A stretch of 32,000 nt of DNA from Formosa sp. Hel1_33_131 (GTDB lineage Bacteria > Bacteroidota > Bacteroidia > Flavobacteriales > Flavobacteriaceae). The translations under genes and the position numbers were made by a program. Below the pieces are notes generated by a model. That model was not told where the DNA came from and did no database searches. It was given only the letters and a program-made list of their open reading frames with translations. This document shows, one piece after another, positions 2,146 through 31,135 of the stretch. Every line of letters starts with the position of its first letter. Position 1 is the first letter of the stretch. The stretch spans positions 450,001 through 482,000 of the forward strand of contig NZ_CP017260.1 in NCBI RefSeq assembly GCF_001735745.1, in the 5' to 3' direction.

Positions 2146-2232
2146 TTAATATTTAGCTCTACAAGATATAAAAATGAGCGGTATCTAAAAGGGAAATACG
2201 GAGAATTTATCAGCAATTTAGTCAACAAAAAT

Positions 2233-9796: not shown

Positions 9797-10840
9797 TTAT
9801 TTCCGAACCCCTCGACGGTCCAAATATGAATGGTACATTCTAGCATTTTGATTGTGTCCTCTTAGCGTTTTCGCAAACCTGTGAAAGCCTGGGTTTTGGG
9901 CGTCTGCAGCAAAATAAAAATACGAATGTTGTTCGTAGTTTAATACCGCTTCAATCGCCGTCAAGTCTGGCATCGCAATCAAACCTGGAGGTAAGCCTTT
10001 ATTCTTGTAAGTGTTATATGGGGAGCTAATCAATTTATGTACATTCAAAACACGTTTGATAATGGTGTTTTTATACTTTGGCAATTGATAGGCCGCATAT
10101 TTGACTGTCGGATCTGCTTGTAAAGGCCAAGCATTGTTTAAACGATTGATATAAACCCCCGCGATTCGCGGCTGTTCGGAGGCTTGTTTGGACTCTTCAT
10201 GAACGATTGCTGCAAGTGCGATCACGTCATGGGGCGTCAAACCAATTGACTTTGCTTTTTCTAAACGGCTGGCATTCCAAAAACGGTTGTACTCTTTTAA
10301 CATGCGTTTTCTGAAGGTCGTTGCAGACGTATTCCAGAAAAATTCATAACTATTTGGCAAATACATTCCTAGGGCATTCGCCTCCGTAAAATCATGAGAT
10401 TCTAAAAACTCTTTATCTGTAAAGGCAGTAATCAAGGCGGTACTGTCGGCCTCTATCTGACTCGAAATTCGAGATGCTAAATCAGCCAATGTATGTTGGT
10501 TATTGAAAGCTATTTTTATTGGCAAATTACGACTGCGAATGGAGTTAATGATATCATTATTGGTCATCCCTTTGGTAATCAAGAATCGCCCCGCTTTGAT
10601 ATTATTCACATATTTCTTTTGCTTTGCTAATGTTTCAAACGTTTCAATATCTTTTAGAAGCGGCTCTAAATCGGCACGAACCTCAGCGAAGGTCGCATCC
10701 GACCCCACAAAAATATAGGCTTCTTTGGAATTAAAACTCGTATTGGGAACGAGCATCACCGAATAAATATAGTAGGAAAAAATTCCGGCACCAATCAATC
10801 CAAGTAACACAATGGCAATCGCTATTTTTTTAAAGTACAT
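9797..10840 (-). CDS. mltG: Endolytic murein transglycosylase MltG (YceG family)
   Basis: 347 aa. N-terminal TM helix and YceG-like core with AAIVHEES (catalytic Glu region) and PPGLIAMPD. Confidence 0.9.
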   Translation of the reverse strand: MYFKKIAIAIVLLGLIGAGIFSYYIYSVMLVPNTSFNSKEAYIFVGSDATFAEVRADLEPLLKDIETFETLAKQKKYVNNIKAGRFLITKGMTNNDIINSIRSRNLPIKIAFNNQHTLADLASRISSQIEADSTALITAFTDKEFLESHDFTEANALGMYLPNSYEFFWNTSATTFRKRMLKEYNRFWNASRLEKAKSIGLTPHDVIALAAIVHEESKQASEQPRIAGVYINRLNNAWPLQADPTVKYAAYQLPKYKNTIIKRVLNVHKLISSPYNTYKNKGLPPGLIAMPDLTAIEAVLNYEQHSYFYFAADAQNPGFHRFAKTLRGHNQNARMYHSYLDRRGVRK

Positions 10841-11357
10841 GATTTATAAATTGAAATAAATATTCGTTTTTATAGCGTCCTTTGTAGAATCGCCACTTTT
10901 TCTTAAGCCCAACTTTTTCAAACCCAACAGATTCAAATAAGCGAATACTCACATTATTATCTTCTAACACATTGCTATACAATTGATGGAGACCTAGTTT
11001 ATTAAAACTATAATCCATCAACACAGATAAGGCGTCTCTCCCATACCCTTTCCCACGATATTTATCTAATACTACAATGCTGACTCCCGCATGTTTGTTT
11101 TGTAGATCAAAATCAAAAAGATCAATAAAACCAAGTGGATCATTGGTTTTAGAAGTAATTACCAACCGCAATTGTTTGAGTTCTTTAATATTTTTTTGAG
11201 TGGTTTCTAAATATTTTCGCAGCACATCCTTAGAAAAAGGAGTTTCAATTTGACTTAACTCCCACAAAGATTCGTCGTTTTCTATGGTATATAAAAACGC
11301 TAAATCTTCGAGCACTAAGGCTCTAAGATTGATCTGATTTCCTTTTAATGCTACCAT
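10830..11357 (-). CDS. GNAT family N-acetyltransferase (RimJ/RimL-like)
   Basis: 175 aa. YRGKGYGRDALSVLMDYSF matches the acetyl-CoA-binding motif. Confidence 0.8.
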   Translation of the reverse strand: MVALKGNQINLRALVLEDLAFLYTIENDESLWELSQIETPFSKDVLRKYLETTQKNIKELKQLRLVITSKTNDPLGFIDLFDFDLQNKHAGVSIVVLDKYRGKGYGRDALSVLMDYSFNKLGLHQLYSNVLEDNNVSIRLFESVGFEKVGLKKKWRFYKGRYKNEYLFQFINHVL

Positions 11358-12130
11358 TCTAAATCTCCTTTAAAGACTTGCTTTGTAGGGCCGCACAACC
11401 ACACATCGGAATACGAAGACGCAAGCGGTTCAAATCGAACCTGCAAATTCCCTCCTTGTGCTTCTAACTTGATAGATTTTGAAGCCGTTTGATTGGAATG
11501 ATACATCGCTATAGCAACAGCTGTGGCTCCTGTACCACAGGACAAGGTCTCCCCTTCTACCCCACGTTCATAAGTACGAATCGCAAAGGTATCTTCATTA
11601 ATTTTTTCGGCAAAATTCACGTTGACACCGCTTTCATCAAAGGGCGCACTGTGTCGAATTTTAGATCCCTCAGCGTTCATGTCAATTGCTTGTAAACCCG
11701 ATTGAAGCGTCACATAATGTGGAGAGCCTGTATCGAGGATATGGTAATTTTCATTGGAGGTAATCGTAGAGACCTCTTGCATTTTCAATTCAACATAGGC
11801 ATCATTAATTTGTGCTAAATGCGGGCCGTCAATGGCTATAAATTCAGTAGTTGATTCTATGATTCCTAAAAAATTTGCAAAGGCAACAATACAGCGACCT
11901 CCATTTCCACACATGGTACTTTCATTGCCATCGGCATTAAAATACACCATTCTGAAGTCGTAATCGGATTCAGATTCTAAGAGAATCAAACCATCCGCAC
12001 CCACACCCGTACGGCGATTGCACAAATGCGCAATCAAATCTGTATTGTTTTTGTCAAACGCACCCAAACGATTATCAATCATCACAAAATCGTTCCCTGT
12101 TCCTTGGTATTTATAAAATAAATGCTTCAT
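11351..12130 (-). CDS. dapF: Diaminopimelate epimerase
   Basis: Catalytic Cys motifs MCGNGGRC and LSCGTGA. ATG at 12130 (MKHLFYKYQGTGNDF) preferred over the TTG at 12142. Confidence 0.93.
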   Translation of the reverse strand: MKHLFYKYQGTGNDFVMIDNRLGAFDKNNTDLIAHLCNRRTGVGADGLILLESESDYDFRMVYFNADGNESTMCGNGGRCIVAFANFLGIIESTTEFIAIDGPHLAQINDAYVELKMQEVSTITSNENYHILDTGSPHYVTLQSGLQAIDMNAEGSKIRHSAPFDESGVNVNFAEKINEDTFAIRTYERGVEGETLSCGTGATAVAIAMYHSNQTASKSIKLEAQGGNLQVRFEPLASSYSDVWLCGPTKQVFKGDLEW

Positions 12131-12255
12131 ATATAAAGACAAATATAAGAATATTAAACTGTAAGTGGAGCTGTTAAAAGGTCGTTAAAATTGAATTGCG
12201 AATTCAATAAAAAACTAATTTTAGGGTTATCATAAAAAATTAAAAATAGAACACC

Positions 12256-13653
12256 ATGAAAAAATTTCTCACATTAGTATGTATTTCAGCTTTAGGTGGA
12301 GCACTCACCCTTGGGACCTACAAACAATTTTTTGAAGATTCTTCAACTCCTAAGCCTATTGAAAATCAAGCGACTGCTTCCTTTTTTCCTGTAAATTTAA
12401 ACACCAATTTGAATGGCGGAACCAATGTGGATTTTACGACCGCTGCGGACAAAACTGTGCATTCAGTCGTTCATGTAAAAAACACAACGCTTAGTAAAGG
12501 CTATACCAGTTTAGAAGACTTATTTAGGGGAAGACCTCAACAGCAAGAGCAGATTGGGACAGGCTCGGGCGTTATTATTTCGCCAGATGGCTATATCATT
12601 ACAAATAATCATGTCATCGACGGAGCGCAATCTATTGAGATTACCACAAATGGCAATAAAACGTACGATGCAGAACTCGTCGGAACCGATCCAAATACTG
12701 ATATTGCTTTACTAAAAATAGAAGCTGATGCCCCCTTAGATTACACCACATTTGGAGATAGTAATTCCGTTCGAATTGGAGAATGGGTTTTAGCCGTTGG
12801 CAACCCTTTTAATCTAAATTCTACAGTAACGGCTGGAATTATAAGTGCAAAATCCAGAGATTTATCTGGACGAAATACGCAGTCGTTTATCCAAACAGAT
12901 GCTGCTGTGAATCCCGGAAATTCAGGCGGTGCTTTGGTCAATATTAAGGGCGAATTAATCGGCATTAATACCGCTATTTCGTCTCAAACAGGTTCCTATA
13001 TTGGCTATTCGTTTGCAGTTCCTAGCAATATTGCGCGCAAGGTCGTGGAAGATCTTATGGAGTTTGGAAATGTACAGAACGGAATTCTAGGAGTGATCGG
13101 TGGCGAATTAAATGGTAAAAATGCTAAAGATTTTGGTGTCGATCAAACGGAGGGTTTTTATGTAACGGACGTACAAAAAGGGACCGGTGCTGAAAGTGCT
13201 GGCATCCAAAAAGGGGACATCATTCAACGCATTGATGGAATTACAATTTCAAAATTTTCGGATTTAAAAGGGTTTCTAAATACCAAAAGTCCTGAAGATC
13301 AAGTAGAAGTTGAGATCCTAAGAAATGGTATCCCTCAAAGTTTGATGGTAACCTTAGAAAAACTCACCACGATTGACATTCCTATCCTTGGAACCCTTCA
13401 AGAGCCCTCAAAAGAAGTGCTTTATAACCTTGATGTAGACTATGGTTTACAAGTTTCAGAGCTCTCAGAAACCCACCGAAAAGATTGGGAATCAGATGGT
13501 ATTTCAGAGGGGAGTGTTGTAACCGAAATCAACGAAGTGAAAATTAATTCTATCAATGATGCTCAGAGAGCATTGGAAAAATACTCCAATAGAGTCCTGA
13601 GAATCGCTCTTGTCAAAAATAATGGTGAAAAAGTAGTGTATCGATTTAGATAA
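12256..13653 (+). CDS. htrA: Periplasmic serine protease, HtrA/DegP/DegQ family with PDZ domains
   Basis: Signal peptide. Catalytic triad contexts TNNHV, DIALLK and GNSGGAL. Two PDZ-like C-terminal segments. Confidence 0.9.
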   Translation: MKKFLTLVCISALGGALTLGTYKQFFEDSSTPKPIENQATASFFPVNLNTNLNGGTNVDFTTAADKTVHSVVHVKNTTLSKGYTSLEDLFRGRPQQQEQIGTGSGVIISPDGYIITNNHVIDGAQSIEITTNGNKTYDAELVGTDPNTDIALLKIEADAPLDYTTFGDSNSVRIGEWVLAVGNPFNLNSTVTAGIISAKSRDLSGRNTQSFIQTDAAVNPGNSGGALVNIKGELIGINTAISSQTGSYIGYSFAVPSNIARKVVEDLMEFGNVQNGILGVIGGELNGKNAKDFGVDQTEGFYVTDVQKGTGAESAGIQKGDIIQRIDGITISKFSDLKGFLNTKSPEDQVEVEILRNGIPQSLMVTLEKLTTIDIPILGTLQEPSKEVLYNLDVDYGLQVSELSETHRKDWESDGISEGSVVTEINEVKINSINDAQRALEKYSNRVLRIALVKNNGEKVVYRFR

Positions 13654-13780: not shown

Positions 13781-15229
13781 ATGGCTTCAAAACCCACCTA
13801 CGATTCCGAAATTGCATTCCAATCCGACCGCAGAAAAGCAGCGGTTGAACTTATTAAAATTCTCAGTGATTTGTGGTACGACAGCGCGATTGAATTGGTT
13901 TTATTTAGAAATCAATTGATGGATCGAAATGTCAGCGAGATTCTTAAACTTCACGAATATGCCGGCGAATTTGTCAATAAACCCATCTCCATATTTGATT
14001 CCGTAGAAATGGTACAAGCCATTAAACTGCTCAACCTTCCAGCCTCAAAATTAGATATCGGAAAATTAACCTTTGAATATCACAAAGAAGAAGCCACGAA
14101 CCTTAGCAGCTCCGCCTTTCTTTCTAAAAAATTAAAAGACGCAAAACAACAACCAAAACTGGAGCCCAAAGATGTGGTTCTCTACGGATTTGGACGCATT
14201 GGACGGTTGGTAGCCCGCGAGTTGATGGGGAAGTCTGGAAGCGGAAGTCAATTGCGACTTCGCGCCATCGTCACTCGAGATAAACTAACCCCCACTATTT
14301 TAGAAAAAAGAGCCGCATTGCTGCGAAGCGATTCTGTTCATGGTGATTTTTATGGAACAGTTCGCGTGGATACAAAATTACAGGCGTTAATTATCAACGG
14401 CATGACCGTTTACATCATATCCGCTGCGAAACCCGAAGACATTGACTATACAGCCTACGGCATAAACGAGGCGTTGATTATTGATAATACGGGAGCTTTT
14501 AGAGATCAAGAAGCACTGCAAAGACATTTGACTTCTAAAGGGTCGAAAAAAGTATTATTAACCGCGCCGGGCAAAGGCATTCCAAATATTGTGCATGGCG
14601 TGAACCATTTAGAACATTCGCCAGATACCGTCGATATTTTCTCTGCAGCCTCTTGTACAACCAATGCCATCACCCCGATTCTAAAAGTAATTGAAGACGC
14701 TTTTGGAGTGGTTCATGGCCATCTCGAAACCATTCATGCCTACACAAACGATCAGAATTTGGTGGACAATATGCATTCTAAATACAGAAGAGGACGCGCC
14801 GCAGCCCTCAATATGGTCATTACTGAAACGGGAGCCGGAAAAGCAGTCAGTAAGGCACTCCCCTCTTTAGAGAACAAGCTCACCTCCAATGCGATTCGGG
14901 TGCCGGTTCCCAATGGAAGTTTGGCTATTTTAAACCTTGAAATCAATAAGAAAACGAATCTCAAAAAAATCAATGAGGTCATCAAAACTGCTGCACTCTC
15001 TGGCGCATTGGTTGAACAAATTAAATATGAATTCAACGACGAGCTTGTTTCTAGCGACATTGTAGGAAGTACGGCACCCGCCATTTACGATAGCAAAGCA
15101 ACCATTGTGAGTCCGAACGGGAAAAATATAATTCTATATATATGGTATGATAACGAGTTTGGGTACAGCCATCAAGTGGTGCGATTGGCCAAATACATTG
15201 CCAAAGTAAGGCGATTCACCTACTATTAG
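13781..15229 (+). CDS. gap: Glyceraldehyde-3-phosphate dehydrogenase, long form with N-terminal extension
   Basis: 482 aa. Rossmann GFGRIGR, active site SAASCTTNAITP and C-terminal WYDNEFGYS. Confidence 0.9.
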   Translation: MASKPTYDSEIAFQSDRRKAAVELIKILSDLWYDSAIELVLFRNQLMDRNVSEILKLHEYAGEFVNKPISIFDSVEMVQAIKLLNLPASKLDIGKLTFEYHKEEATNLSSSAFLSKKLKDAKQQPKLEPKDVVLYGFGRIGRLVARELMGKSGSGSQLRLRAIVTRDKLTPTILEKRAALLRSDSVHGDFYGTVRVDTKLQALIINGMTVYIISAAKPEDIDYTAYGINEALIIDNTGAFRDQEALQRHLTSKGSKKVLLTAPGKGIPNIVHGVNHLEHSPDTVDIFSAASCTTNAITPILKVIEDAFGVVHGHLETIHAYTNDQNLVDNMHSKYRRGRAAALNMVITETGAGKAVSKALPSLENKLTSNAIRVPVPNGSLAILNLEINKKTNLKKINEVIKTAALSGALVEQIKYEFNDELVSSDIVGSTAPAIYDSKATIVSPNGKNIILYIWYDNEFGYSHQVVRLAKYIAKVRRFTYY

Positions 15230-16012: not shown

Positions 16013-16085
16013 CAGCCAATTTCGAGTTAACCTCTGGCGATCATCGCGAATGTTGTTTCGGATAAATACATAAAAAACCATTAAT

Positions 16086-22134: not shown

Positions 22135-22167
22135 TACAAAAGTGTTTCAAAAATTCTATTTTTGTGT

Positions 22168-22989
22168 ATGACTTTCACAAAAACCACCGAACAGGATTCG
22201 CATTACAACCATCTCGAAAAAATGTCTATTAAGGATGTTTTAAACGTGATCAATCAAGAAGATCAGAGCGTTCCTACGGCGGTTGCATCAGCAGTCCCAC
22301 AAATTGAAGCTCTGGTAGCACAGATTGTAAACAACCTGAAAAACGGCGGACGTTTGTTTTATTTGGGTGCTGGAACCAGTGGACGCCTCGGAATTTTGGA
22401 TGCTTCTGAATGTCCTCCCACTTTTGGAGTCCCACATGAAATGGTGATTGGACTGATTGCAGGTGGTGATAGTGCCATCCGTAAAGCGGTTGAATTTGCC
22501 GAAGACGATACCCAACAAGGCTGGAAGGATTTACAAGCATATAGTATCTCCACAAACGATGTGGTGGTTGGTATTGCTGCTTCTGGCACAACGCCCTATG
22601 TGATTGCGGCCTTGAAAGCCTGTCAGCAAGCCAACATCAGCACGGGATGTATGACGTGCAACGAGGGCAGTCCCCTCGCCCAAGTATCGGATTACCCAAT
22701 TGAAGTGGTGGTAGGTCCCGAAGTATTAACGGGCAGCTCACGAATGAAAGCCGGCACGGCACAAAAATTAGTATTGAATATGATCACCACCACCACAATG
22801 ATTCAGCTTGGAAAGGTAAAAGGCAACAAAATGGTGGACATGCAACTGAACAATGATAAACTAGTCGCCCGTGGCGTCAAGATGTTGATGGATCAGTTGA
22901 ACCTCTCAGAAACCGAAGCACAACAGTTGTTAGACACTCATAAAAACGTACGTACCGCATTAAAAAAATATACCAATGGAAACGCCTAG
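22168..22989 (+). CDS. murQ: N-acetylmuramic acid 6-phosphate etherase MurQ
   Basis: SIS domain LGAGTSGRLGILDASECPPTFG and GSSRMKAGTAQK. N-terminal TTE aligns with the conserved MurQ N-terminus, so the ATG near 22168 is preferred. Confidence 0.92.
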   Translation: MTFTKTTEQDSHYNHLEKMSIKDVLNVINQEDQSVPTAVASAVPQIEALVAQIVNNLKNGGRLFYLGAGTSGRLGILDASECPPTFGVPHEMVIGLIAGGDSAIRKAVEFAEDDTQQGWKDLQAYSISTNDVVVGIAASGTTPYVIAALKACQQANISTGCMTCNEGSPLAQVSDYPIEVVVGPEVLTGSSRMKAGTAQKLVLNMITTTTMIQLGKVKGNKMVDMQLNNDKLVARGVKMLMDQLNLSETEAQQLLDTHKNVRTALKKYTNGNA

Positions 22990-23209
22990 AACCAATAAAG
23001 ACCTTTTAGTGGGTGGACTTAAAACAATGGGGGTGACTCTCTTCTTATTATTTTTAGGGCCTTTTATTTTACATGCTGGATTTTCCAATCCCGATAAACC
23101 GCTTTACATCCCTTTGGTGATTGCGGGTGTTTTGACTTGTGGAGCGGCGATTTACTTTGGTTTTAAAGGGATCCGCACAATTATGGACAGCCTTTTTGGG
23201 CGGAAATAA
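22976..23209 (+). CDS. Small two-TM membrane protein (DUF6095-like); its 3' end is the first repeat copy
   Basis: 77 aa. Two hydrophobic helices (GVTLFLLFLGPFILHAGF and LVIAGVLTCGAAIYFGF). Overlaps the murQ end by 14 nt. Confidence 0.6.
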   Translation: METPRTNKDLLVGGLKTMGVTLFLLFLGPFILHAGFSNPDKPLYIPLVIAGVLTCGAAIYFGFKGIRTIMDSLFGRK

Positions 23210-23277
23210 TTTCTTTTTATTATATTTACAACGGACTTAGACCTCAAATCTGATTCTTCATTTTAACCAATTCAACT
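23162..23277 (+). repeat. Repeat module copy C1 (gene 3' end + TTTG/TATATTTA promoter-like pair + invariant core)
   Basis: About 82% identity over ~115 nt to 25685-25796. A 27-nt identical block GACTTAGACCTCAAATCTGATTCTTCA lies at 23234-23260. Confidence 0.85.
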
Positions 23278-23297
23278 TTTTAGTAAGCTATTAAAAT

Positions 23298-23313
23298 ACT
23301 GTATTTATACAGT
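23298..23313. promoter_or_regulatory. 16-nt perfect palindrome ACTGTATttATACAGT (candidate operator)
   Basis: 7+7 perfect inverted repeat with a 2-nt centre, 38 nt downstream of the C1 core. Confidence 0.3.
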
Positions 23314-23449
23314 GGTGTATGGGTATGCGGAGTTTTTAAAAATTGATTGAGCAACGAAGTATACATACTAATGAATTATAAACTTTAGTTTTTAGTGTTA
23401 AAAATGAATGAAATGAAAAAACATTTAAATACGTTTTATAAAACAGAAA

Positions 23450-23488
23450 GTTCAACAATACACGCCAATTTGGGATGTATTGTTGAAC
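23450..23488. repeat. 39-nt near-perfect palindrome / 13-bp hairpin
   Basis: GTTCAACAATACA / TGTATTGTTGAAC arms with a 13-nt loop that is itself partly palindromic (CCAAtTTGG). Confidence 0.8.
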
Positions 23489-23511
23489 GAAACACTAAAT
23501 ATAATGGAAAT

Positions 23512-23549
23512 ATGCACACCTAAAGGTGTGTATATACACTAGTTCTACG
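23512..23549 (+). repeat. Hairpin + TATACacTAG-GTTCTACG boundary element (X0)
   Basis: ATGCACACC taaa GGTGTGTAT forms a 9-bp stem. GTTCTACG (23542-23549) is the exact reverse complement of 24698-24705. Confidence 0.55.
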
Positions 23550-23568
23550 TCATTAAAAAAATCAAAGA

Positions 23569-24666
23569 ATGAAAAAAATATTAAAAACAATAAAATATTC
23601 GATTATAACCATCGTGGTAATAGTTTTAGTATTTATCGCAATTGTTTTTATAAAAAGCCCTGGAGTAGCTGACATTGTTAGAAATAATGATGGAAATATT
23701 CCTAAAAATGCTATTTCTACTATAGTAACAATTCCTGTTGGCGAAATACAGCAGACTATTATTATTAGAGGAGAAGATAATACTAAACCTGTTTTGTTAT
23801 TCTTACATGGAGGTCCGGGGACACCTGAATTTCCATTTATGAAAAATATAGGATTAAATTTAGAGCAAGAATTTGTAGTAGCGTATTGGGAACAACGAGG
23901 AGCGGGAAAATCTTATTTTAAAGATATACCTGTAGAAAGTATGTCATTACCACAAATGATATCTGATGCTGTTGAAGTCTCAGAATATTTACAAATCCAA
24001 TTTAAGCAAAATAAAATTTATTTGATGGGGCATTCTTGGGGCTCTTTTTTAGGTACTATGTTAGCTTATCAGCACCCTAATCATTTTCACTCTTACATTG
24101 GCATTGGGCAAGTTTCTCACCAATATTATGGAGAAAAAATCTCTTTGAATTGGATTAAAAAAATGGCTAAAAACCTTAAAAATAAATCAGATGTTGAGAT
24201 TATAAATACACTAGTATTTCCTGACTCTTTGGCGGACAACCAAACATGGATGGACTATTTGATACCTCAAAGAGATTTTGTCAATAAATATGGTGGTGGT
24301 TTTAGCCACAAAAACTATAATTTGACAAATCTTTATAAAACCATTCTCTTTGATAGTCCTGAATATACTTTTCGAAATAAAATAAATTATTTAGAGGGAG
24401 CTCTATTTTCACCTATGCATCTTTGGGATGATGTTATTCAAACAAATTTAATACAAGAAGTTGATAGTATCTCTATTCCAGTTCATATCATTCAAGGTAT
24501 TCATGACTATCAGACACCTCTGAAACCTGCTAAAGATTTTTTTACTCAATTAAAAGCACCAGAGAAAAATTTTTATCAGTTCGATCATTCAGCTCATTTT
24601 CCATTTATAGACGAACCCAATAAATTTAACAAAATAATAGAAAAAATAGTCTTAGGTGAAAATTGA
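23569..24666 (+). CDS. Membrane-anchored alpha/beta hydrolase (proline iminopeptidase-like, S33-type)
   Basis: N-terminal TM helix, oxyanion HGGPG, nucleophile elbow GHSWGS, and a C-terminal His region (DHSAHFPF). Confidence 0.85.
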   Translation: MKKILKTIKYSIITIVVIVLVFIAIVFIKSPGVADIVRNNDGNIPKNAISTIVTIPVGEIQQTIIIRGEDNTKPVLLFLHGGPGTPEFPFMKNIGLNLEQEFVVAYWEQRGAGKSYFKDIPVESMSLPQMISDAVEVSEYLQIQFKQNKIYLMGHSWGSFLGTMLAYQHPNHFHSYIGIGQVSHQYYGEKISLNWIKKMAKNLKNKSDVEIINTLVFPDSLADNQTWMDYLIPQRDFVNKYGGGFSHKNYNLTNLYKTILFDSPEYTFRNKINYLEGALFSPMHLWDDVIQTNLIQEVDSISIPVHIIQGIHDYQTPLKPAKDFFTQLKAPEKNFYQFDHSAHFPFIDEPNKFNKIIEKIVLGEN

Positions 24667-24697
24667 GAAAAAAGAAATAAAAATGAATTTAAAACGC

Positions 24698-24830
24698 CGT
24701 AGAACAAGGTATAAAAATAATAGCGGTTTAATCACTAAAACAAAAGTAATGAAACATAAAAAAGGTCTGTGTTTAACCGAAAAGTTAGTGCGTGTAAATC
24801 CGCTACTATTCTTATACTAGACCGTTAGCA
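24698..24830 (+). repeat. Imperfect inverted-repeat element X-A (attC-like architecture)
   Basis: CGTAGAAC, then arm GTATAAAAATAATAGCGGTTTA (24709-24730), a 64-nt spacer, arm TAAATCCGCTACTATTCTTATACT (24795-24818), then TAGACC-GTTAGCA (24824-24830). Confidence 0.65.
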
Positions 24831-24861
24831 AACTTATAGAATAAATTAAAAATCACTTCCT

Positions 24862-25548
24862 ATGAAAAATATATTATTATTTATATTGTTACTTTCCTCT
24901 CATATTGTTATTAGTCAGAACCTCATAGAGTTCAGAACAGCATCACTCGTAGATGGTGATTACTCACTCGAGGGAGACGTGTATCTGGAACTGTTTGACG
25001 ATAATTCCCTCAACCTCAGATTTGATACAAATTATTTGACTCAGAGTAACGTATTTGATGTTCATGTGTTTCTAACTAATAATAATGACTATACACAACC
25101 TATTGACACATCTGGGATGTTACTAGTGGAAAACATAGGAACCATTAGTGGCCTAAATTACTCATCAGGCGCTATGACATTTAACTTACCTTCAGGTGTA
25201 GGCATCAATGATTATGACCATATTGTCTTTGTTTGCATCCAATTCGGCCAGTTGCATTGGGGAGATGGAACCTTTGGCTCAACATCTCTAGGTATTATCA
25301 AAAACGATTTTGGAAGCAAACTTTTAGCACACCCTAATCCAACTGATGGTAATTTCTCGATTGACTTGGGAGCTGTTTATGAATCTGTAGAAATTATTCT
25401 TTCTGATATTAATGGCAAGTTAATTCGTTCAGAGTCATTTCGTCAAGAGCAACTTGTTAATATACCATTAAAAGAACCGTCTGGCATATATTTAATAACA
25501 GTTCAAGCAGATAATAGAAAGGCATCAATAAAATTGATAAAAGAATAA
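24862..25548 (+). CDS. Secreted DM13-like domain protein with T9SS C-terminal sorting domain
   Basis: Signal peptide. DM13-like segment (GDVYLELFDDNSLNLRF...FDVHVFL). C-terminal Por secretion tail pattern (HPNPTDGNFSIDL...SGIYLITVQADNRKASIKLIKE). Confidence 0.65.
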   Translation: MKNILLFILLLSSHIVISQNLIEFRTASLVDGDYSLEGDVYLELFDDNSLNLRFDTNYLTQSNVFDVHVFLTNNNDYTQPIDTSGMLLVENIGTISGLNYSSGAMTFNLPSGVGINDYDHIVFVCIQFGQLHWGDGTFGSTSLGIIKNDFGSKLLAHPNPTDGNFSIDLGAVYESVEIILSDINGKLIRSESFRQEQLVNIPLKEPSGIYLITVQADNRKASIKLIKE

Positions 25549-25554
25549 ACGATT

Positions 25555-25607
25555 TGCCAACAATGTATAAGCGGCATTAAAACGACCGCTTATACTAACC
25601 GTCAAAC
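25555..25607 (+). repeat. Inverted-repeat element X-B (short homologue of X-A)
   Basis: TGCCAAC-aat-GTATAAGCGG (25565-25574), 11-nt loop, CCGCTTATAC (25586-25595), then TAACCGTCAAAC. It aligns with X-A apart from internal deletions. Confidence 0.65.
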
Positions 25608-25684
25608 TACGCAAAATCTAAAGGTATTCCATGACTTAAACAAATAGAACTTTATAATTTTAAATCTAGAATACGCAGCAAGAC

Positions 25685-25732
25685 TTTAAAGGCATCCGCA
25701 CCATTAAGTAGAGTCTCTTTGGTCAGAAATAA
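25685..25732 (+). pseudogene. Decayed duplicate of the last 16 codons of the 22976-23209 gene
   Basis: Reads FKGIRTIK*SLFGQK*, compared with FKGIRTIMDSLFGRK* at 23162-23209. There is no upstream ORF. Confidence 0.7.
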
Positions 25733-25796
25733 TTTTTTTATTATCTTTACAATAGACTTAGACCTCAAATCTGATTCTTCAAAAAACCAATTCAAC
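25685..25796 (+). repeat. Repeat module copy C2
   Basis: Collinear with C1. TTTG (25718-25721), TATCTTTA (25742-25749), identical 27-mer at 25755-25781, and AACCAATTCAAC at the end. Confidence 0.85.
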
Positions 25797-25916
25797 CAAA
25801 AGTATTTTAAGATTATTATGCTATTTAGACGCCTCTAAATGGGCTTGTTCGGAAATAATCCTATTTAAGCAGGGTGTGATTTGTAGTCGTTAGCATTCAT
25901 ATTAAAAAATAGAACT

Positions 25917-26486
25917 ATGAAATACAATTCTTCTGAAATGATGTGTTTAGACATTTATCTTTCTTCTTTGTCAGATAAAGAACATGACAAAATAAAACAT
26001 CAAATTAAATCGTCTAAAGCTAAAATATCCCCGTTATCAAGTTGGGATATCTATAGGCCAAATTATTTTAAAACACTTGACAAGCAGAGAAAAAAAAGAG
26101 ATCTTAAGGTTGTAAATTCATTCTTTAAAAAAGAAAAATGGAGTAATGATTTTCAGAGTGTTTTTAAAAATCAAGAGTTTGAAGCACTCGTAATTACCGA
26201 TTTAAACCAAAGAATTATTTGGGTTAATGAAGGATTTACTAAAATGACAGGCTATTCAAAAGATTTTGCCATAAACAAAACACCCCATTTTTTACAGGGA
26301 GAAAACACCTGCTCATCTGTTAAGAAAAAAATTAGAACTAAATTAAAAAAATCACATCCATTTAAGGAGGTGATCACAAACTACAGAAAAGATAATTCAG
26401 TCTATAATTGCGAAGTGAGAATTATCCCTTTGTATTGTAATGAAAAGGTAACTCACTTTTTAGCTTTAGAAAAAGAAGTCATCTAA
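25917..26486 (+). CDS. Stand-alone PAS domain protein, LOV-like but lacking the adduct-forming Cys
   Basis: Residues ~90-189 align with LOV domains (VITD...GYS...NKTPHFLQG...NYRKD). The N-terminal ~90 aa are unassigned. Confidence 0.7.
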   Translation: MKYNSSEMMCLDIYLSSLSDKEHDKIKHQIKSSKAKISPLSSWDIYRPNYFKTLDKQRKKRDLKVVNSFFKKEKWSNDFQSVFKNQEFEALVITDLNQRIIWVNEGFTKMTGYSKDFAINKTPHFLQGENTCSSVKKKIRTKLKKSHPFKEVITNYRKDNSVYNCEVRIIPLYCNEKVTHFLALEKEVI

Positions 26487-26584
26487 ATAGATTAAATGAA
26501 ATTCTCCAAGCTGCGTACTCTATGGATTAAACCAATAAACCCTCGCTAGCAAAAGAACAAAAACTAACGAATAACAATTAAAAA

Positions 26585-26809
26585 ATGATAGTTTTAGCAA
26601 TGATGGAGACTTGGGAATTAATTATACTCTTATTTATTTTAGCGCTCGCTGTGTTACCAACTGTCTTAGCACTTATTGATATTCAAAAAAGTGAATTTCA
26701 GGGAAACACGAAACTAATTTGGCTGTTGGTGGTGATATTTTTGAGCTTTTTTGGAGCTATTTTGTATTTTTTAATTGGAAAGGAACAGAAAACAACTACA
26801 AACAACTAG
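26585..26809 (+). CDS. Small membrane protein with PLD-nuclease N-terminal (PLDc_N) domain
   Basis: 74 aa, two TM helices. KLIWLLVVIFLSFFGAILYFLIG is the PLDc_N signature. Confidence 0.65.
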   Translation: MIVLAMMETWELIILLFILALAVLPTVLALIDIQKSEFQGNTKLIWLLVVIFLSFFGAILYFLIGKEQKTTTNN

Positions 26810-26841
26810 ACGTATTAAATGCAATGTTCCTGAGGTTTTTA

Positions 26842-26937
26842 GCGTGAGGGATTGCAGTTGAAAAGCCCACGGTCATAGCGCGGCGTTAGCCTGTGTTGTG
26901 GCGAGGACTTGTAGCGGAAAGCCCGGCTTTGAACGCC
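26842..26937. repeat. GC-rich tandem degenerate repeat / structured element between convergent genes
   Basis: Two ~33-nt units, GCGTGAGGGATTGCAGTTGAAAAGCCCACGG and GTGGCGAGGACTTGTAGCGGAAAGCCCGGC. The second is enclosed by the stem GGCGTTAGCC / GGCTttgAACGCC. Confidence 0.6.
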
Positions 26938-26961
26938 CAAAAAAAGTTTTTTTATTTTTAT

Positions 26962-28224
26962 CTAAAAATATTGCCCAATACCAAACACAAATCCTCTGTT
27001 GGCATTTTTTGTGATGCCATAGCCATAGTCGATACGAAGGATGGCATTGAATATTTTTTTGTGAATGATCCGCACGCCTATACCTGTATAAACATTAATG
27101 TTTTCGCTGTCTCCAAAAGTGCTTAAACTGCCCCCTGGGTTTCGCCAAGTTCCTGCATCAATAAATCCATTGCCTTGCACAACGATGCTTTTCTTTTCCA
27201 AAAAAGTATGTCGGTACTCTGTATTAAAAACAATACTGCCTGTGCCTCTGTCAACAGCGTTTCCAACGCCTCTTAAATTTACGTTGTTATCCAAGGCAAA
27301 AGGTGCAAAAGGGCTGTCGTTATTTGTGGATAAGCCAAGGCGTAATCTGTTGGCCCAATTTCCTTTATCCCCAACTCTTTTGTAATACAAGAAGTCGTTC
27401 CAAGCGATTATAAAATTGTTTTGAGATTTGATTTCGGAGCTTACGAATTGTCCATTGAAAACACTTTTAAAACCACTGATGTAGAAATAAAAATAATTTA
27501 GATTTTCGTGTGTATAAATAAGTTTAAACAATCGCTTATTCACATCCAATTGGCTGGGAACTCCAGACTCTATATCCCCCGTTTTATGATCGTATTTTTC
27601 ATTAAAAACAGAGAATCCAACTTTTAAAGTATTTTTGAAATTTAGCTCATAGGATCCCAATAACTCATAGGAGGTGTTGTGGTAAAGGTAATTGGCCGTG
27701 TTTTCTCCAAAATGAAGCGGTTCTTCGCTTTTCCAATTTAGGTAGTTGAGCCCCAAACCAAACTTATTTGAAAACAAATAAGGGGCATTAAAATTTAAGG
27801 AAAAGGTGTTATAGCCATTATTTTGATAAAAGCCACCCATGGTTATATTTCTGCCAAATAAATTATATTCGGAGATACCAATTTTATAAGCGACTGTCCT
27901 AATTGTTGTCCAATAATTAAAAACGGGTATCAAGGTGAAGTTTTCTTCTAAATTAAACTGAACCTTGAGGTGATTATCGGGAAGTTGGACGACTTCATAA
28001 GTAGCATTAGAAATGGAGGGCAATCGTTTTAACCTAATAAGATCTTTTTCTATGAGGGTAGAATCTAGTGGGTGTCCTTTTTTGGTTTCTAAAATAGTTC
28101 TTAAAAACGATGCTTTTGTTTTTTTGAGGCCTTTAAAATCGAGTTCATTAATGAGTTCCGTTTGTGCGCACACGGAGGTACTGACTACAATAAAAAAAGT
28201 AAAAAGAGATGCTATGGATTTCAT
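26962..28224 (-). CDS. POTRA-domain outer-membrane beta-barrel protein (BamA/TamA/ShlB superfamily)
   Basis: Signal peptide, one POTRA-like N-domain (INELDFKGLKKTKASFL...), barrel with a C-terminal GIGQYF. Confidence 0.75.
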   Translation of the reverse strand: MKSIASLFTFFIVVSTSVCAQTELINELDFKGLKKTKASFLRTILETKKGHPLDSTLIEKDLIRLKRLPSISNATYEVVQLPDNHLKVQFNLEENFTLIPVFNYWTTIRTVAYKIGISEYNLFGRNITMGGFYQNNGYNTFSLNFNAPYLFSNKFGLGLNYLNWKSEEPLHFGENTANYLYHNTSYELLGSYELNFKNTLKVGFSVFNEKYDHKTGDIESGVPSQLDVNKRLFKLIYTHENLNYFYFYISGFKSVFNGQFVSSEIKSQNNFIIAWNDFLYYKRVGDKGNWANRLRLGLSTNNDSPFAPFALDNNVNLRGVGNAVDRGTGSIVFNTEYRHTFLEKKSIVVQGNGFIDAGTWRNPGGSLSTFGDSENINVYTGIGVRIIHKKIFNAILRIDYGYGITKNANRGFVFGIGQYF

Positions 28225-28242
28225 ACGTCCTTGATTATAAAT

Positions 28243-29115
28243 TTAAAATAGGGTTCTTAAGCCGATATTAAATGTTTGACCCAATCCGGTGTTATTTCCT
28301 CTCACAAAATTGGTGTATAAAAACTCAATATTCAACACCTTTGTGAGTTGATATTTTGTTCCAAAACCAAGCACTGAATAGTCTTGTGCTAAACTTTCTC
28401 CAAGATCGAGCCTTTGGGAATGTTGCGCCATCACTAAAACAGTAAATTTTTGACTTGGAAAATAACTAAAAAAGACACTTGGTGTTAAAACCAAACTCGT
28501 ATTTGCAAAGCTCTCTTTCTTATCCCCAAAATTATATTCTGTATTTATTTCAGCAAATAATTGTAGTTCATCTCCTGCAAAGGTGTAATCATACAAAAAT
28601 CGGTTTTGGAGGGTATATCCTTTTTGATCTAAATAAACGTTGTTTTCTGATTCCTCTTTTACCAATGGAATATGGAAGGCTGTCAACAATGTTAAATTAC
28701 TAATTTTATTAAAGGGTTTGAATTTTATGGCAGGTGCAAATGAGGTAAATCCAGAACGCGTCCCATTGGTTGAATTATTCTCAAATTTAAAAACATCAAA
28801 GGTATCTAGGCCATTGACCGCATTTGAACGTATTTCTAATAAAAGTCCAACGTCTAAATTGTTGTTTTTAGAGATGCCAGTAAAAATATCTATGGTGGAT
28901 GTAAAATAAGTTTCTCTTGGCTGTGAACCAGGTTTTTCAGAGTTTTTTGTTTGGGTATAAATATTATTAAACCATTTAATATCCCATTGCCCTTTATTCA
29001 ATAGTTTTGAGGGGGTATAAGTGATGATGTTACTCTGTTCATTATCGTTATCTTCTTGTGAAGCGATTGAGAATGTCAGCATTAAAAATAGTACTGTGGT
29101 GATTTTAAGTTTCAT
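28243..29115 (-). CDS. Outer-membrane beta-barrel protein, family unassigned
   Basis: Signal peptide, alternating amphipathic strands, and a C-terminal OMP signature (GLRTLF). Confidence 0.5.
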   Translation of the reverse strand: MKLKITTVLFLMLTFSIASQEDNDNEQSNIITYTPSKLLNKGQWDIKWFNNIYTQTKNSEKPGSQPRETYFTSTIDIFTGISKNNNLDVGLLLEIRSNAVNGLDTFDVFKFENNSTNGTRSGFTSFAPAIKFKPFNKISNLTLLTAFHIPLVKEESENNVYLDQKGYTLQNRFLYDYTFAGDELQLFAEINTEYNFGDKKESFANTSLVLTPSVFFSYFPSQKFTVLVMAQHSQRLDLGESLAQDYSVLGFGTKYQLTKVLNIEFLYTNFVRGNNTGLGQTFNIGLRTLF

Positions 29116-29145
29116 AAGTAGGGTGTTTAAGGCGTGTGTTTAATG

Positions 29146-29862
29146 TTAGGGTTGACTGTTTAAAGTCCAGTTGTACGTGAAGTACCGTAATTTAAAATTT
29201 GGGGGTATTTTCTCTTTTCTGTAGAGGTTTAAAAAATCAATTTCAGATTGACCTTTTATTACAAAATCTTCTTTATACCATTTTAGGATCTCGGAGGCTT
29301 CGACACGCTTTTTTTTGATATTGACTTTTATAAATGAATCGCCATTAATGGCCAATTCGGTTTGTTCTTTTAACTGTTTGTCTAAGGTTTCTGGGAAATA
29401 CGCTTTAGGGATTAAAGGCGGACATCCTATGGCACCACAAACCAATACAAAGTGCAAGCGCGGATCCTTAAATTGAGCTCTTAACAGGGTGTTTTCAATG
29501 GAGTTTAACGTGACTTTTTGACCTGCAATCTCATAGGTAATTTTATCAAAAAAACCACCTTTATCTAAAGGAGAATTCATAGGGTAATTGGTTATGATTC
29601 CTTTGATAACCGCTAAATTATAGGCATTAATCCAAAATGCTTTATAGTGATCCTCTTCTTTAGAAATAGAAAGCGTTGCTGCTATATTGAAGAGTTCATC
29701 TAACGCGGATGGGTTGGAATGGATTTTTTCATACGCTACTGTTCCGTTCTGAACGTAGGTTTTTAAAAACTGATCGGTTTTTGTGAAAAATGAAGAGACA
29801 TCTTGTGCATATAAAGAATAGGCTAAGAGTGTCAGTAGAAAAATAAGGGGATATTTTTTCAT
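29146..29862 (-). CDS. DUF547 domain protein (secreted)
   Basis: Signal peptide. AFWINAYNLAVIKGI and the HFVLVCGAIGCPPL motifs are typical of DUF547. Confidence 0.8.
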   Translation of the reverse strand: MKKYPLIFLLTLLAYSLYAQDVSSFFTKTDQFLKTYVQNGTVAYEKIHSNPSALDELFNIAATLSISKEEDHYKAFWINAYNLAVIKGIITNYPMNSPLDKGGFFDKITYEIAGQKVTLNSIENTLLRAQFKDPRLHFVLVCGAIGCPPLIPKAYFPETLDKQLKEQTELAINGDSFIKVNIKKKRVEASEILKWYKEDFVIKGQSEIDFLNLYRKEKIPPNFKLRYFTYNWTLNSQP

Positions 29863-30040
29863 GATTTTATTGAGATTGGAGGATTATATAATATCAAAAT
29901 TTTCAGTTAAAGTATAAAATTAATTCGAGAAATCAAACGATATTCATAACATTCAGTCTGGTACTCGTTTGGGAGTCCCCTATAAATTAGTATCAAATAG
30001 GGTGCCATATTGACTCAACCTAAGCTTAATATAATTTTAA

Positions 30041-30128
30041 TTTTTTGGTCGTATTCATTTTTTGACTACTTTTATGGCGGAATAAGACCTCAAATCTGAT
30101 TCTTCAATAACCTATATAAACTAGTAAG
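30041..30128 (+). repeat. Repeat module copy C3 (most diverged)
   Basis: TTTG (30044-30047), TACTTTTA (30067-30074), exact 22-mer at 30085-30106, then AACC...AAC-TAGTAAG as in C1. Confidence 0.7.
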
Positions 30129-30244: not shown

Positions 30245-30676
30245 ATGAATAAAAAAGAAGCTTTAAAGATTTTAAACGATAATGCTGCTACAGAAAATGA
30301 CAGCTATCTTTACTTTATACATGAAGAAGGATGCTTTGACGAATTTTCTTTTTGGGAATTTTACAATGCTATAAAAGTATTAGGACATGAATTTAAAGAT
30401 GAAAAAAAACTGTCAAGAGAATTAATGAAAAAAATAATTAAGAGCTATGAATGGTATTTAATTTTAATTGGATTTCATTTTGACCCAAATGACAAAAGTA
30501 GAATCGATCATTTACCAGAAAATTATTCTCAATACAGTTTGAGGTTGAGAAATGCAATAACTAGTTTTATAGATGGAAACCCTATCACGAACGAATTAGA
30601 GGAAGTTCTTAATAATGATTTAAAAAATAAAACGAAAGTTTTTAAAAAAGTTGATTATAATAAATCAAATATGTAA
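30245..30676 (+). CDS. Hypothetical cytoplasmic all-alpha protein (immunity-protein-like, family not recognised)
   Basis: 143 aa with no signal peptide or TM helix. AT-rich codon usage like the islands. No motif I can name. Confidence 0.45.
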   Translation: MNKKEALKILNDNAATENDSYLYFIHEEGCFDEFSFWEFYNAIKVLGHEFKDEKKLSRELMKKIIKSYEWYLILIGFHFDPNDKSRIDHLPENYSQYSLRLRNAITSFIDGNPITNELEEVLNNDLKNKTKVFKKVDYNKSNM

Positions 30677-30714
30677 ATTTATAAAAATGTGAATTTCAGT
30701 ACATACGAAATCAC

Positions 30715-30722
30715 TAATTTTG
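30715..30722 (+). promoter_or_regulatory. -7 box TAATTTTG upstream of dgkA
   Basis: Matches TAnnTTTG, 44 nt before the ATG at 30767. This supports the shorter dgkA start. Confidence 0.4.
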
Positions 30723-30766
30723 CAAACAAGTACCCAATACTAATATTACAAAAAATAAAGAATAGA

Positions 30767-31135
30767 ATGATATTATTTATAAAAGGAAGGCTTCAAAGTT
30801 TTAAATATGCCTTTAGAGGTTTGTTTTTATTATTAAAAACAGAGCACAGCATCATGGCCCAAACCTTCGTTTTTTCGTTAACCATTTTACTGGGTTTTAT
30901 CGTTGGCATTTCTAAACAAGATTGGATCAATCAAATCATTGCGATGGGATTGGTTATGAGCATAGAAGGCATGAATACGGCCGTTGAAAAATTAGCCGAT
31001 TTTGTACATAAAGAAAACCACCCTAAAATAGGATTCATAAAAGACATTTCAGCAGGAGCAGTTACTTTTGCTGCACTCACATTCATAGTCATTTTTGCAA
31101 TAACCTATCTCCCCTATATCATAAATCGAACCTAA
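30767..31135 (+). CDS. dgkA: Diacylglycerol kinase family protein (DgkA)
   Basis: 122 aa from the internal ATG. SFKYAFRGL...EHS N-terminus, three TM helices and MNTAVE. Confidence 0.85.
   Translation: MILFIKGRLQSFKYAFRGLFLLLKTEHSIMAQTFVFSLTILLGFIVGISKQDWINQIIAMGLVMSIEGMNTAVEKLADFVHKENHPKIGFIKDISAGAVTFAALTFIVIFAITYLPYIINRT

Follow-up and report, generated by a model that had tools for sequence, protein, structure and literature searches.

Promoter-plus-leader modules of a probable integron-like gene-cassette system in Formosa-clade flavobacteria

The stretch of DNA considered here, hereafter referred to as the window, comprises 32,000 nucleotides (nt) of Formosa sp. Hel1_33_131 (NZ_CP017260.1, positions 450,001 to 482,000 of the forward strand), and harbors, between a DUF6095 small membrane-protein gene and dgkA, three direct copies (C1, C2 and C3) of a short module with an invariant 22-nt core. 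We consider it probable that these copies are the promoter-plus-leader modules of an integron-like gene-cassette system found in Formosa-clade flavobacteria. In its complete form, such a system would comprise a Bacteroidetes-type promoter, a short leader, and a gene encoding a 402-amino-acid (aa) recombinase related to Xer and IntI proteins, the 3' end of which would overlap an attI-like site (..CACTAG|TT); cassettes would insert after the attI G, each closing with an imperfect palindrome of the form nnnnAAC ... GTTnnnn. At C1 of the window, the putative promoter and the leader core are followed by approximately 170 nt of non-coding DNA, the last ~40 codons of the recombinase, attI, and two promoterless cassettes, and C2 and C3 would head the next transcription units (PAS/PLDc_N, and a 143-aa open reading frame (ORF) with dgkA, respectively). 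In recombinase-less platforms of this kind the module would read toward attI and its cassettes, and elsewhere it would stand at the 5' end of a cargo unit. Transcription presumably starts at the module, and the recombinase would catalyze the exchanges on folded single strands. The interval between DUF6095 and dgkA as a whole is supported as an accessory region built by recombination, and as a hot spot of gene capture.

The 22-mer AGACCTCAAATCTGATTCTTCA occurs three times in the window, in each case on the + strand (23239, 25760 and 30085), at spacings of 2521 nt from C1 to C2 and 4325 nt from C2 to C3; no further match is present in the window at up to three mismatches, and none of 100 shuffled sequences contains a match. 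C1 (23162-23276) and C2 (25685-25796) are collinear over 115 nt at 84% identity and have in common an identical block of 27 nt, GACTTAGACCTCAAATCTGATTCTTCA. C3 is more diverged: its alignment with C2 extends over about 126 nt (71% identity), and that with C1 over 47 nt (81%). The collinear stretch of C1 and C2 begins 16 codons upstream of the DUF6095 stop codon, and the corresponding segment preceding C2 (25685-25731, + strand) is a pseudo-copy of those terminal codons carrying an in-frame stop. On each of these points the original prediction, made from this DNA alone, is borne out: the three copies, the 27-nt block, the greater divergence of C3, the start of C1 within the last 16 codons of the gene at 22976-23209, and likewise the cargo annotation and its division into intervals of 2.5 and 4.3 kb. 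Its statement that the cargo is richer in AT than the flanks holds toward the left, where guanine-plus-cytosine (GC) content is 0.37-0.46 as against 0.28-0.36 over the region, and fails toward the right, since the flank from dgkA onward is equally AT-rich.

The core of C1 (23239-23260, + strand) lies inside the 27-nt block, which starts at 23234 (GACTTAGACC..TTCA), and belongs to what we term a type-A module, a recombinase-less platform of about 340 nt (23204-23544, + strand) that was delimited by blastn and recurs at other chromosomal anchors. Type-A copies stand behind seven other anchor contexts, where the aligned stretch spans -36 to +304 (counted from the core) with 75-80% identity, and the homology ends exactly at 23544. 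Within the platform are a C-terminal remnant of a recombinase gene (23401-23523, + strand; ..FYKTESSTIHANLGCIVERNTKYNGNMHT followed by a stop), recognized by translation and tblastn, and an attI-like site (23450-23544, + strand) with hairpins at 23450-23488 and 23510-23535 and the junction ..ATATACACTAG|TT between G23542 and T23543; folded as single-stranded DNA, this site has a z value of -6.4. Cassette 1 (23543-24824, + strand) consists of an alpha/beta hydrolase ORF assigned from Pfam (23569-24666) and an attC-like site of 132 nt (24699-24830, + strand), which has the R'' sequence GTAGAAC, ends ..CTAGACCG|TTAGCA, and scores 124 bits with the covariance model R1 introduced below. Cassette 2 (24825-25602, + strand) consists of a Por_Secre_tail ORF (24862-25548), the product of which would be sorted by the type IX secretion system (T9SS), and a short attC-like site found by motif search (25555-25609, + strand; TGCCAAC-AATG-TATAAGCGG..CCGCTTATA-CTAACCG|TCAAAC).

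Related loci were fetched as contigs and compared with the window, and are designated here by L-numbers. Ten metagenomic contigs encode an identical DUF6095 protein, and the synteny upstream of this gene is kept in all relatives. Where strains match at 97.5-100% identity on either side, the hydrolase segment is the only part swapped: in L001, L003 and L010 its place is taken, as one block, by DUF6864 with a 95-aa ORF, by a 181-aa ORF, or by a 251-aa ORF. The left break falls exactly past ..ATATACACTAG|TT (G23542) and the right break at ..CTAGACCG|TTAGCAAAC (G24824), so that within near-identical backgrounds the different cargo begins right past the attI GTT. When all loci were compared with one another, the same left junction (..CACTAG|TT or ..ATAACTAG|TT) was found at other anchors as well, with at least 12 different continuations. 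The original prediction had the repeat copies themselves delimiting exchangeable islands; the swaps instead take place at 23542|23543 and 24824|24825.

The exchanged segments have a common logic. Each starts with TT after a G, and near its 3' end carries a 7-mer complementary to that G plus its own first six bases; cassette 1 of the window starts TTCTAC and carries GTAGAAC at 24699, and the cassettes of L001 and L003 start TTAGGC and carry GCCTAAC. The 7-mer is followed by AAnGTATAAAAATAATAGCGG, a variable center, and CCGCTACTATTCTTATACTAGACC-G|TT, which is the R''-L''...L'-R' layout of an integron attC. For a test of this complementarity, the first attC left half downstream of each of 23 first cassettes was located by a search that ignored the variable bases; in 14 of the 23, all four variable positions of R'' were complementary to the cassette's own start, and the mean complementarity was 2.87 of 4 as compared to 1.44 when shuffled, with none of 10000 shuffles reaching the observed value. 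Nine attC-like sites of ~132 nt from different loci fold into a consensus stem of 13 pairs, six of which display double compensatory changes. The sites of the window likewise fold as long imperfect hairpins (z = -4.0 for that of cassette 2, the R'' of which has one mismatch to the complement of G+TTAGCA). As a simple regular expression for the attC left half proved unspecific (64 matches on the same strand versus 35 on the opposite strand, in addition to matches in control loci), a covariance model (R1) built from the nine sites was adopted; it finds 39 sites in 886 kb, 30 of them outside the training set, all 39 co-oriented with the module cores or recombinase genes, and it finds none in module-free control loci. 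The outer four bases covary freely, and therefore selection would appear to act on base pairing in a folded strand rather than on a fixed duplex sequence. If the hydrolase cassette (23543-24824) were excised as a circle, it would carry the junction ..CTAGACCG|TTCTACGTC...

Past the last attC, the DNA at 25603-25684 (G|TCAAACTACGCAAAA..) resembles the post-attC sequence of L051 (- strand, ~10045; G|TCAGACTGCGCAAAA..). It may represent either a cassette start or the conserved right flank of an attI that was ancestrally empty; G|TCAAAC.. was rejected as a recurrent cassette start, with L051 as the one further example.

A search of all fetched loci by tblastn, with IntI1 and XerD queries, returned a single match, in L091. 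This contig represents the window's own chromosomal locus, with PLDc_N, a C3-like module, dgkA, a sulfatase gene and an acetyltransferase gene downstream, and carries an intact tyrosine recombinase gene (2210-3418, 402 aa) whose TAG stop forms part of the attI junction ..CACTAG|TT; upstream of the gene are the promoter found in the window and a core that has diverged. The remnant in the window matches residues 357-396 of this protein at 70% identity (tblastn, E 3e-12), and at the DNA level window 23412-23544 is 88% identical to L091 3289-3420, the end of the gene plus attI. More than 20 other module loci retain exactly this C-terminal piece and nothing else of the gene, and L094 is identical to L091 downstream of the attI junction but has a non-coding type-A module in place of the recombinase gene. 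The earlier observation that no integrase gene is in sight is accordingly correct as regards a complete gene in the window, and overlooked the C-terminal remnant; the trans-acting recombinase then invoked is plausible, given that the sister strain L091 has the intact gene at the same locus.

The L091 recombinase passes the cutoff of NCBIfam NF040815, 'site-specific tyrosine recombinase/integron integrase' (232 bits, cutoff 220), and its closest solved relatives are archaeal XerA (4a8e, 5hxy), then VchIntIA (2a3v, in a split match), then XerD (1a0p). Homologues number in the thousands in Bacteroidota. The protein has an N-terminal extension of ~95 aa and, in the Formosa clade, a conserved tail of ~30 aa encoded by the attI hairpin region. 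The attI sequence is found 3' of intact recombinase genes in L091, L151, L152, L153 and L154. In L151 (69% identity) and L152 (63%) the recombinase gene stands behind another conserved gene and is followed by the same attI hairpin region; a DUF5655 cassette whose attC R'' matches its own start comes next in L152, and in L151 the attI region ends ..ATACAATAG|AT, with the contig stopping soon after. In L154/L155 (55% identity), ..ATATACAGTAG|TT precedes a cassette whose attC R'' matches its own start, and in L153, from a distant member of the Bacteroidota (52% identity), the junction is ATATACACTAG|TT and all three cassettes checked have matching R''/R' and belong to the same attC family. Variable cassettes follow right after ..TA(C/G)..TAG|TT, at or just past the recombinase stop, in L091, L152, L153 and L154.

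Two further observations concern these loci. The attI hairpin region itself (L091 3307-3418, with equivalents in L151, L152 and L154 and in window 23434-23523) codes for the final ~30 residues of the recombinase (..FYKTKSSTIHANLGCIVE..), and because this tail is conserved among homologues of 55-69% identity, the attI DNA seems to be both coding sequence and recombination site. The array at 10927-18197 of L153 is defense-like, with SIR2_2, SLFN/AlbA_2, a metallophosphatase with an ORC/Cdc6-like ATPase, and a D12 methyltransferase.

As for the module itself, a scan of one genome per species with a 20-mer query found 20 stretches, only in Formosa/Flavobacteriaceae metagenome-assembled genomes, on several different contigs per genome, and a metagenome scan with a slightly degenerate pattern yielded at least 112 stretches. 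After duplicates and six chance hits in coding DNA had been dropped, 113 unique members were retained among the matches listed, and these have the form TTTT..TAnnTTTA..GAyTTA plus the core at fixed, ungapped spacing. C1-C3 each have TTTG, some 20 nt on TAnnTTTA, and then GAyTTA and the core at a constant distance. Read from the sequence, the promoter-like element of C1 (23195-23228, + strand) has TTTG at 23195-23198 and TATATTTA at 23221-23228. Module C2 (type B; 25718-25781, + strand) has TTTG at 25718-25721, TATCTTTA at 25742-25749 and its core at 25760-25781, and heads PAS (25917-26486) and PLDc_N (26585-26809); module C3 (type C; 30044-30106, + strand) has TTTG at 30044-30047, TACTTTTA at 30067-30074 and its core at 30085-30106, and heads the 143-aa ORF (30245-30676) and dgkA (30689-31135). 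Promoters of Bacteroidetes have a -33/-7 consensus of TTTG / TAnnTTTG, which the module element resembles.

More than 110 contexts harbor the core, which occupies seven or more chromosomal sites per genome and follows at least seven different anchor genes. On the upstream side there are a few recurring conserved genes in either orientation, namely DUF6095 and genes encoding proteins of 131, 160, 221, 242, 247 and 308 aa, and the downstream cargo amounts to 83 proteins in 66 clusters among the matches listed, ranging over T9SS substrates, DNA-repair, redox, restriction and superinfection-exclusion proteins, and dgkA. The next downstream gene, usually 100-350 nt away, is co-oriented with the module in 84 cases and opposed in 8 (of 92, among the matches listed), and in loci holding two or three modules the copies always have the same orientation. 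At many chromosomal sites the module thus marks where a conserved gene gives way to variable cargo. It sits 56-65 nt past a G|TTA(A/G) junction in 27% of cases (among the matches listed), directly after the preceding attC within arrays, and DUF6095-type remnants also precede it in L034 and L101. In six loci (L029, L121, L127, at ~75 nt past the core, and L026, L076, L098) near-identical type-A modules are broken by GC-rich segments (e.g. CGGGCCCCGCTGCCGCACGAATCCC.., ..CTTGTAGCGGAG..), which may represent a separate family of small insertions or structured elements.

Is the module, then, simply a dispersed repeat of the repetitive extragenic palindrome (REP) or miniature inverted-repeat transposable element (MITE) kind, with no specific link to recombination? 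The numerous copies per genome, and the presence or absence of about 85 nt between L040 and L011, would be in keeping with this, and the original prediction had reasoned that occurrence at many unrelated loci without synteny breaks would point to a generic element. The many unrelated loci are indeed found, but the synteny is broken at them. Moreover, the module has no terminal inverted repeats, keeps a strict polarity to its cargo and a fixed promoter, and is physically continuous with attI and the recombinase remnant, and the 39 of 39 co-oriented attC-model matches are foreign to such a repeat; we regard this explanation as highly improbable.

The promoter-plus-leader assignment draws upon the recombinase genes themselves. 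Upstream of the three closest of these, a promoter, TTTTTTTAyTAyATTTG, is followed by ACAG-N9-CTG(T) containing CCCAAAtCTG, and when the promoter and core of C1-C3 are aligned with these upstream regions, TTTTT.A.TA..TTT...AG..C.CAAA.CTG.T is invariant. Because of this alignment, we take the module to be a paralogue of the recombinase gene's own promoter and leader. The invariance of the 22-mer would reflect constraint on this part of the module, its recent spread, or both. Its most likely role would be that of a leader or operator at a set distance from the -7 box, tying expression of the cargo and of the recombinase to one regulator, and secondarily it might serve as portable homology for swapping module-headed units; we favor a role as transcribed leader or operator, common to recombinase and cargo promoters, and give this reading roughly an even chance of being right. 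Nearly all members are predicted to form a small hairpin, UUAGA-N7-UCUGA, which natural variants retain, and the recombinase leaders have AACAG-N9-CUGUU instead. The core was also considered as an SOS (LexA-type) box and rejected, as the published Bacteroidetes motifs do not match; two have been reported, GGA-N5-TCC and CTAA-N5-TTAG (PMC8565304).

It might alternatively be supposed that the modules are multicopy genes for a trans-acting small RNA of ~95-120 nt with an invariant 5' seed, which merely adjoin variable genes. Each module has a promoter of its own, its 5' ~27 nt are invariant and variable hairpins follow, the type-A module has a U-run at ~+95, and hairpin positions are kept between types whose sequences differ, all of which would suit such a gene. 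However, RNAalifold, applied to 29 type-A and 11 type-B members, supports no structure beyond a weak 5' hairpin of 5-7 bp (with changes from U.G to U-A and from A-U to G.U) and one short stem, AGUAA/UUACU, and the module has no match in Rfam either at the gathering threshold or at E<=1. The predominant co-orientation with, and the distance to, the downstream gene described above fit a 5' leader or promoter better, and in complete platforms the promoter and core directly precede the recombinase start codon. We consider a small RNA to be an unlikely explanation.

The account favored by the original prediction was that the 22-27-nt core is an att crossover site beside the 3' end of DUF6095, at which successive integrations left attL, a hybrid site and attR and so built up tandem islands. 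Direct repeats with an identical core and diverged flanks are what this account would predict, as is the displaced pseudo-3' end of DUF6095 at C2, and the arms GACTTAGA / TCTGATTC form an imperfect inverted repeat with a 7-nt spacer, in the manner of a tyrosine-recombinase core site. The states of the locus among relatives are pertinent here. In the first (L011-13), DUF6095 is directly followed by dgkA; this is the empty site that had been predicted, but it has neither module nor core, which weighs against the att account. In the second (L040, and also L032 and L107), DUF6095 and dgkA flank a single module, as would be expected of a single-core empty site; in L040 the left half of this module is of C1 type and the right half of C3 type. 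The third comprises multi-module arrays with or without the recombinase gene (the window, L007/L024 and L091). The different cargo that was to be looked for is carried by the near-identical L001, L003 and L010 and by L007. L040 has ~85 nt more than L011, namely the promoter, the core and 25 nt, and the window has 6.8 kb more than L040, located between two cores. One strain pair (L032/L107) diverges immediately past the core, and the other core-proximal break points are at +10, +20, +58, +75, +85, +89 and +108.

As these break points scatter from +0 to +108 nt in near-identical strains, the module copies would also appear to serve as recombination homology, yielding mosaics. The scatter would fit poorly with a single crossover point in an att core, as would the strain-level swaps at G|TT junctions, which lie 300 nt and 1.6 kb past the core. 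Furthermore, the core is not confined to the end of a target gene and the ends of an element, given the more than 110 contexts and the anchors other than DUF6095, such that repeated integration specific to the 3' end of DUF6095 does not hold up; and the core always stands at a set distance from the promoter and precedes a recombinase gene as well. On the strength of the swaps at G|TT and the scattered break points, an identical core with diverged flanks is better understood as constraint on, or spread of, the module than as the outcome of successive att duplications, and we consider the att account improbable.

Several observations weigh against the promoter-plus-leader and cassette reading which we prefer. 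The window holds no complete recombinase gene, only the 40-codon remnant. The L091 recombinase scores 209 bits against the integron-integrase model TIGR02249, which is below the cutoff of 265, and in a match split into two stretches; in a MAFFT alignment the Formosa-type recombinases have gaps of 31+11 residues at the IntI1 insertion, as does XerD, and are thus without the IntI additional domain. The consensus attC fold has 2x2 and 1x1 internal loops and no clear single-sided bulges, the bottom strand having had no dedicated analysis, and the form of the attC R' is GTTRnnn and not strictly GTTRRRY. With no additional domain, a TIGR02249 score below the cutoff, and symmetric attC loops, the chemistry may not be the one used by integrons. 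Within the window, detectable canonical cassettes number no more than two: neither motif search nor model R1 finds attC-like sites at the PAS/PLDc_N unit of C2, at the C3 unit or upstream of it, or at the ends of a 3.1-kb insertion between them. The duplication of C1 and C2, including 48 nt of DUF6095 coding sequence, is not explained by cassette logic. A core-mediated event, whether site-specific or of the Campbell type, is possible because the window amounts to L040 plus 6.8 kb between two cores, and is rated a lesser explanation. For the module, the promoter and leader are assigned from motifs; covariation in the module RNA is weak, with one compensatory double change in a single sequence and changes in the 5' hairpin that are one-sided only; and the core was rejected as a DNA hairpin or cruciform site, there being no stable DNA fold.

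The strain-specific insertion of 3.1 kb (26812-29927, - strand) carries genes for a POTRA protein (26962-28224), a 290-aa ORF (28243-29115) and DUF547 (29146-29862), and is absent in L007, L024 and L091, where PLDc_N is directly followed by a C3-like module. It, too, is not explained by cassette logic, and the segments around the PAS/PLDc_N unit, the insertion and the DNA upstream of C3 have no homologues in the other fetched loci. The gene order of the region is alpha/beta hydrolase, Por_Secre_tail protein, PAS, PLDc_N, the minus-strand trio, the 143-aa ORF and dgkA, with the DUF6095 gene (22976-23209, + strand; Pfam PF19589, E 2e-31) as the conserved left-hand anchor of the array. A murQ-like SIS gene (22162-22989) overlaps the DUF6095 gene by 14 nt, and the pair is syntenic in all relatives, Psychroserpens included. 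At the left edge of the insertion, just 3' of PLDc_N, is a GC-rich structured element (26837-26932, + strand) which gives a full-length but sub-threshold match to Rfam Flavo-1 (26 bits, gathering threshold 42, E 0.03); Flavo-1 was rejected as a recurrent RNA of these arrays, with this one weak match in the window and none in 16 other loci. Searches of the window for tRNA, tmRNA and Rfam families found nothing at the repeats. An ordinary L19-Flavobacteria leader (RF03130, 40.5 bits) lies upstream of rplS at 16028-16055 (+ strand).

Other differences among the relatives may be recorded here. In L007, a 92%-identical strain, six different genes follow the platform (10437-12889), one of them Mob_CxxC_CxxC (PF27874), and the PAS and Por_Secre_tail genes are absent. 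In L014 and L015 (10249-12926), a 75%-identical DUF6095 is followed by two convergent, paralogous Por_Secre_tail genes, and between these two contigs a 361-nt segment is swapped between the two Por_Secre_tail positions, which may reflect gene conversion or assembly variation. L011 and L012, contigs from one and the same population, differ at 14327-14478 by a short replacement that runs from 14327 to the 3' end of a tRNA-like sequence (..GGTTCGACTCCGAT..CCAC), inside an apparent rRNA operon downstream of dgkA.

With regard to the wider meaning of these observations, we tentatively propose, at somewhat less than an even chance of being right, that the Bacteroidota own a widespread capture system of the integron type, in which an Xer-like recombinase without the additional domain recombines folded attC hairpins, and which would either have arisen independently or survive as a relative of the ancestor that integrons had before IntI. 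One Formosa recombinase would act in trans on many attI platforms behind core genes, each driven by a mobile module whose 22-nt core would co-regulate cargo and recombinase. Integrons are the classical example of a gene-capture system. In surveys with IntegronFinder, Bacteroidetes yielded a single complete integron (Salinibacter) and otherwise only In0 elements (PMC9024848), and a 2024 preprint places Bacteroidota among the clades 'previously found without any integrons' (bioRxiv 10.1101/2024.07.02.601686); both sources, in reporting integrons as near-absent from Bacteroidetes, define them by an integrase with the additional domain. We found no description of the Formosa system in the open-access literature, most subscription journals being outside the scope of the search. 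What is at hand is a cassette system that bears the hallmarks of integrons at the DNA level and is linked to a recombinase lacking the additional domain, in abundant marine flavobacteria, with near-identical attI and attC sequences in distant Bacteroidota whose arrays hold defense-like genes. If the recombinase is active, then integron-type evolution would reach a major phylum, a natural test would be available of the need for the additional domain in folded-hairpin recombination, with a bearing on the origin of integrons, and some of the 'flexible genome' by which strains differ in bloom-forming Formosa populations would be accounted for.

The resemblance to integrons is extensive. In both, a tyrosine recombinase gene adjoins an attI-type point, co-oriented cassettes end in nnnnAAC...GTTnnnn palindromes, and the junction is G|TT; in both, following the logic of a circular cassette, R'' complements the bases with which its own cassette begins; and in both there are attC sites of lineage-uniform length (here ~132 nt) and sequence, integrase-less arrays, and diverse cargo including defense-like genes, those of L153 paralleling the 'defence biobank' role reported for Vibrio integrons. 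The outcome at the population level is the replacement of cassettes between strains that are 99-100% identical on both sides. In contrast to integrons, the Formosa recombinase is without the additional domain and falls below the integron-integrase cutoff, asymmetric extrahelical bases are not obvious in the stems of the attC-like sites, attI and the 3' end of the recombinase gene overlap, and each genome has many recombinase-less attI platforms behind different core genes as well as many units with a promoter/leader module of their own. Judged by its attI and by attC sites with R''/R' complementarity, the system would be integron-like at the DNA level, and the one defining feature that it fails is the IntI additional domain. 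An architecture of dispersed promoter modules with multiple orphan attI platforms has not been described for integrons. In integrons of the Treponema/Chlorobi type the integrase gene is co-oriented with the cassettes; as the Formosa recombinase is likewise transcribed toward attI and the cassettes, one upstream promoter can serve both. Those integrases nevertheless carry the IntI additional domain, and to our knowledge no dispersed promoter modules have been described for them.

The Xer recombinases (XerA, XerC/D) are the closest solved relatives in sequence and also lack the additional domain, but do not have the ~95-aa N-terminal extension of the Formosa proteins. In Xer/dif systems, and in the pdif modules of Acinetobacter, gene modules are likewise swapped at short recombinase sites; dif and pdif, however, are 28-bp duplex sites with fixed arms, whereas the Formosa sites are palindromes of 41-136 nt, and since their outer 4 nt covary freely, a base-paired, folded substrate is argued for. 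Last, the conserved element of the modules is reminiscent of the LexA operator at Pint and Pc, in that a short conserved element is found both at the recombinase promoter and at promoters reading into cassettes. Like that operator, the Formosa element is a partial dyad (TTAGA-N7-TCTGA, or ACAG-N9-CTGT upstream of the recombinase), but it matches neither SOS box reported for Bacteroidetes (PMC8565304).

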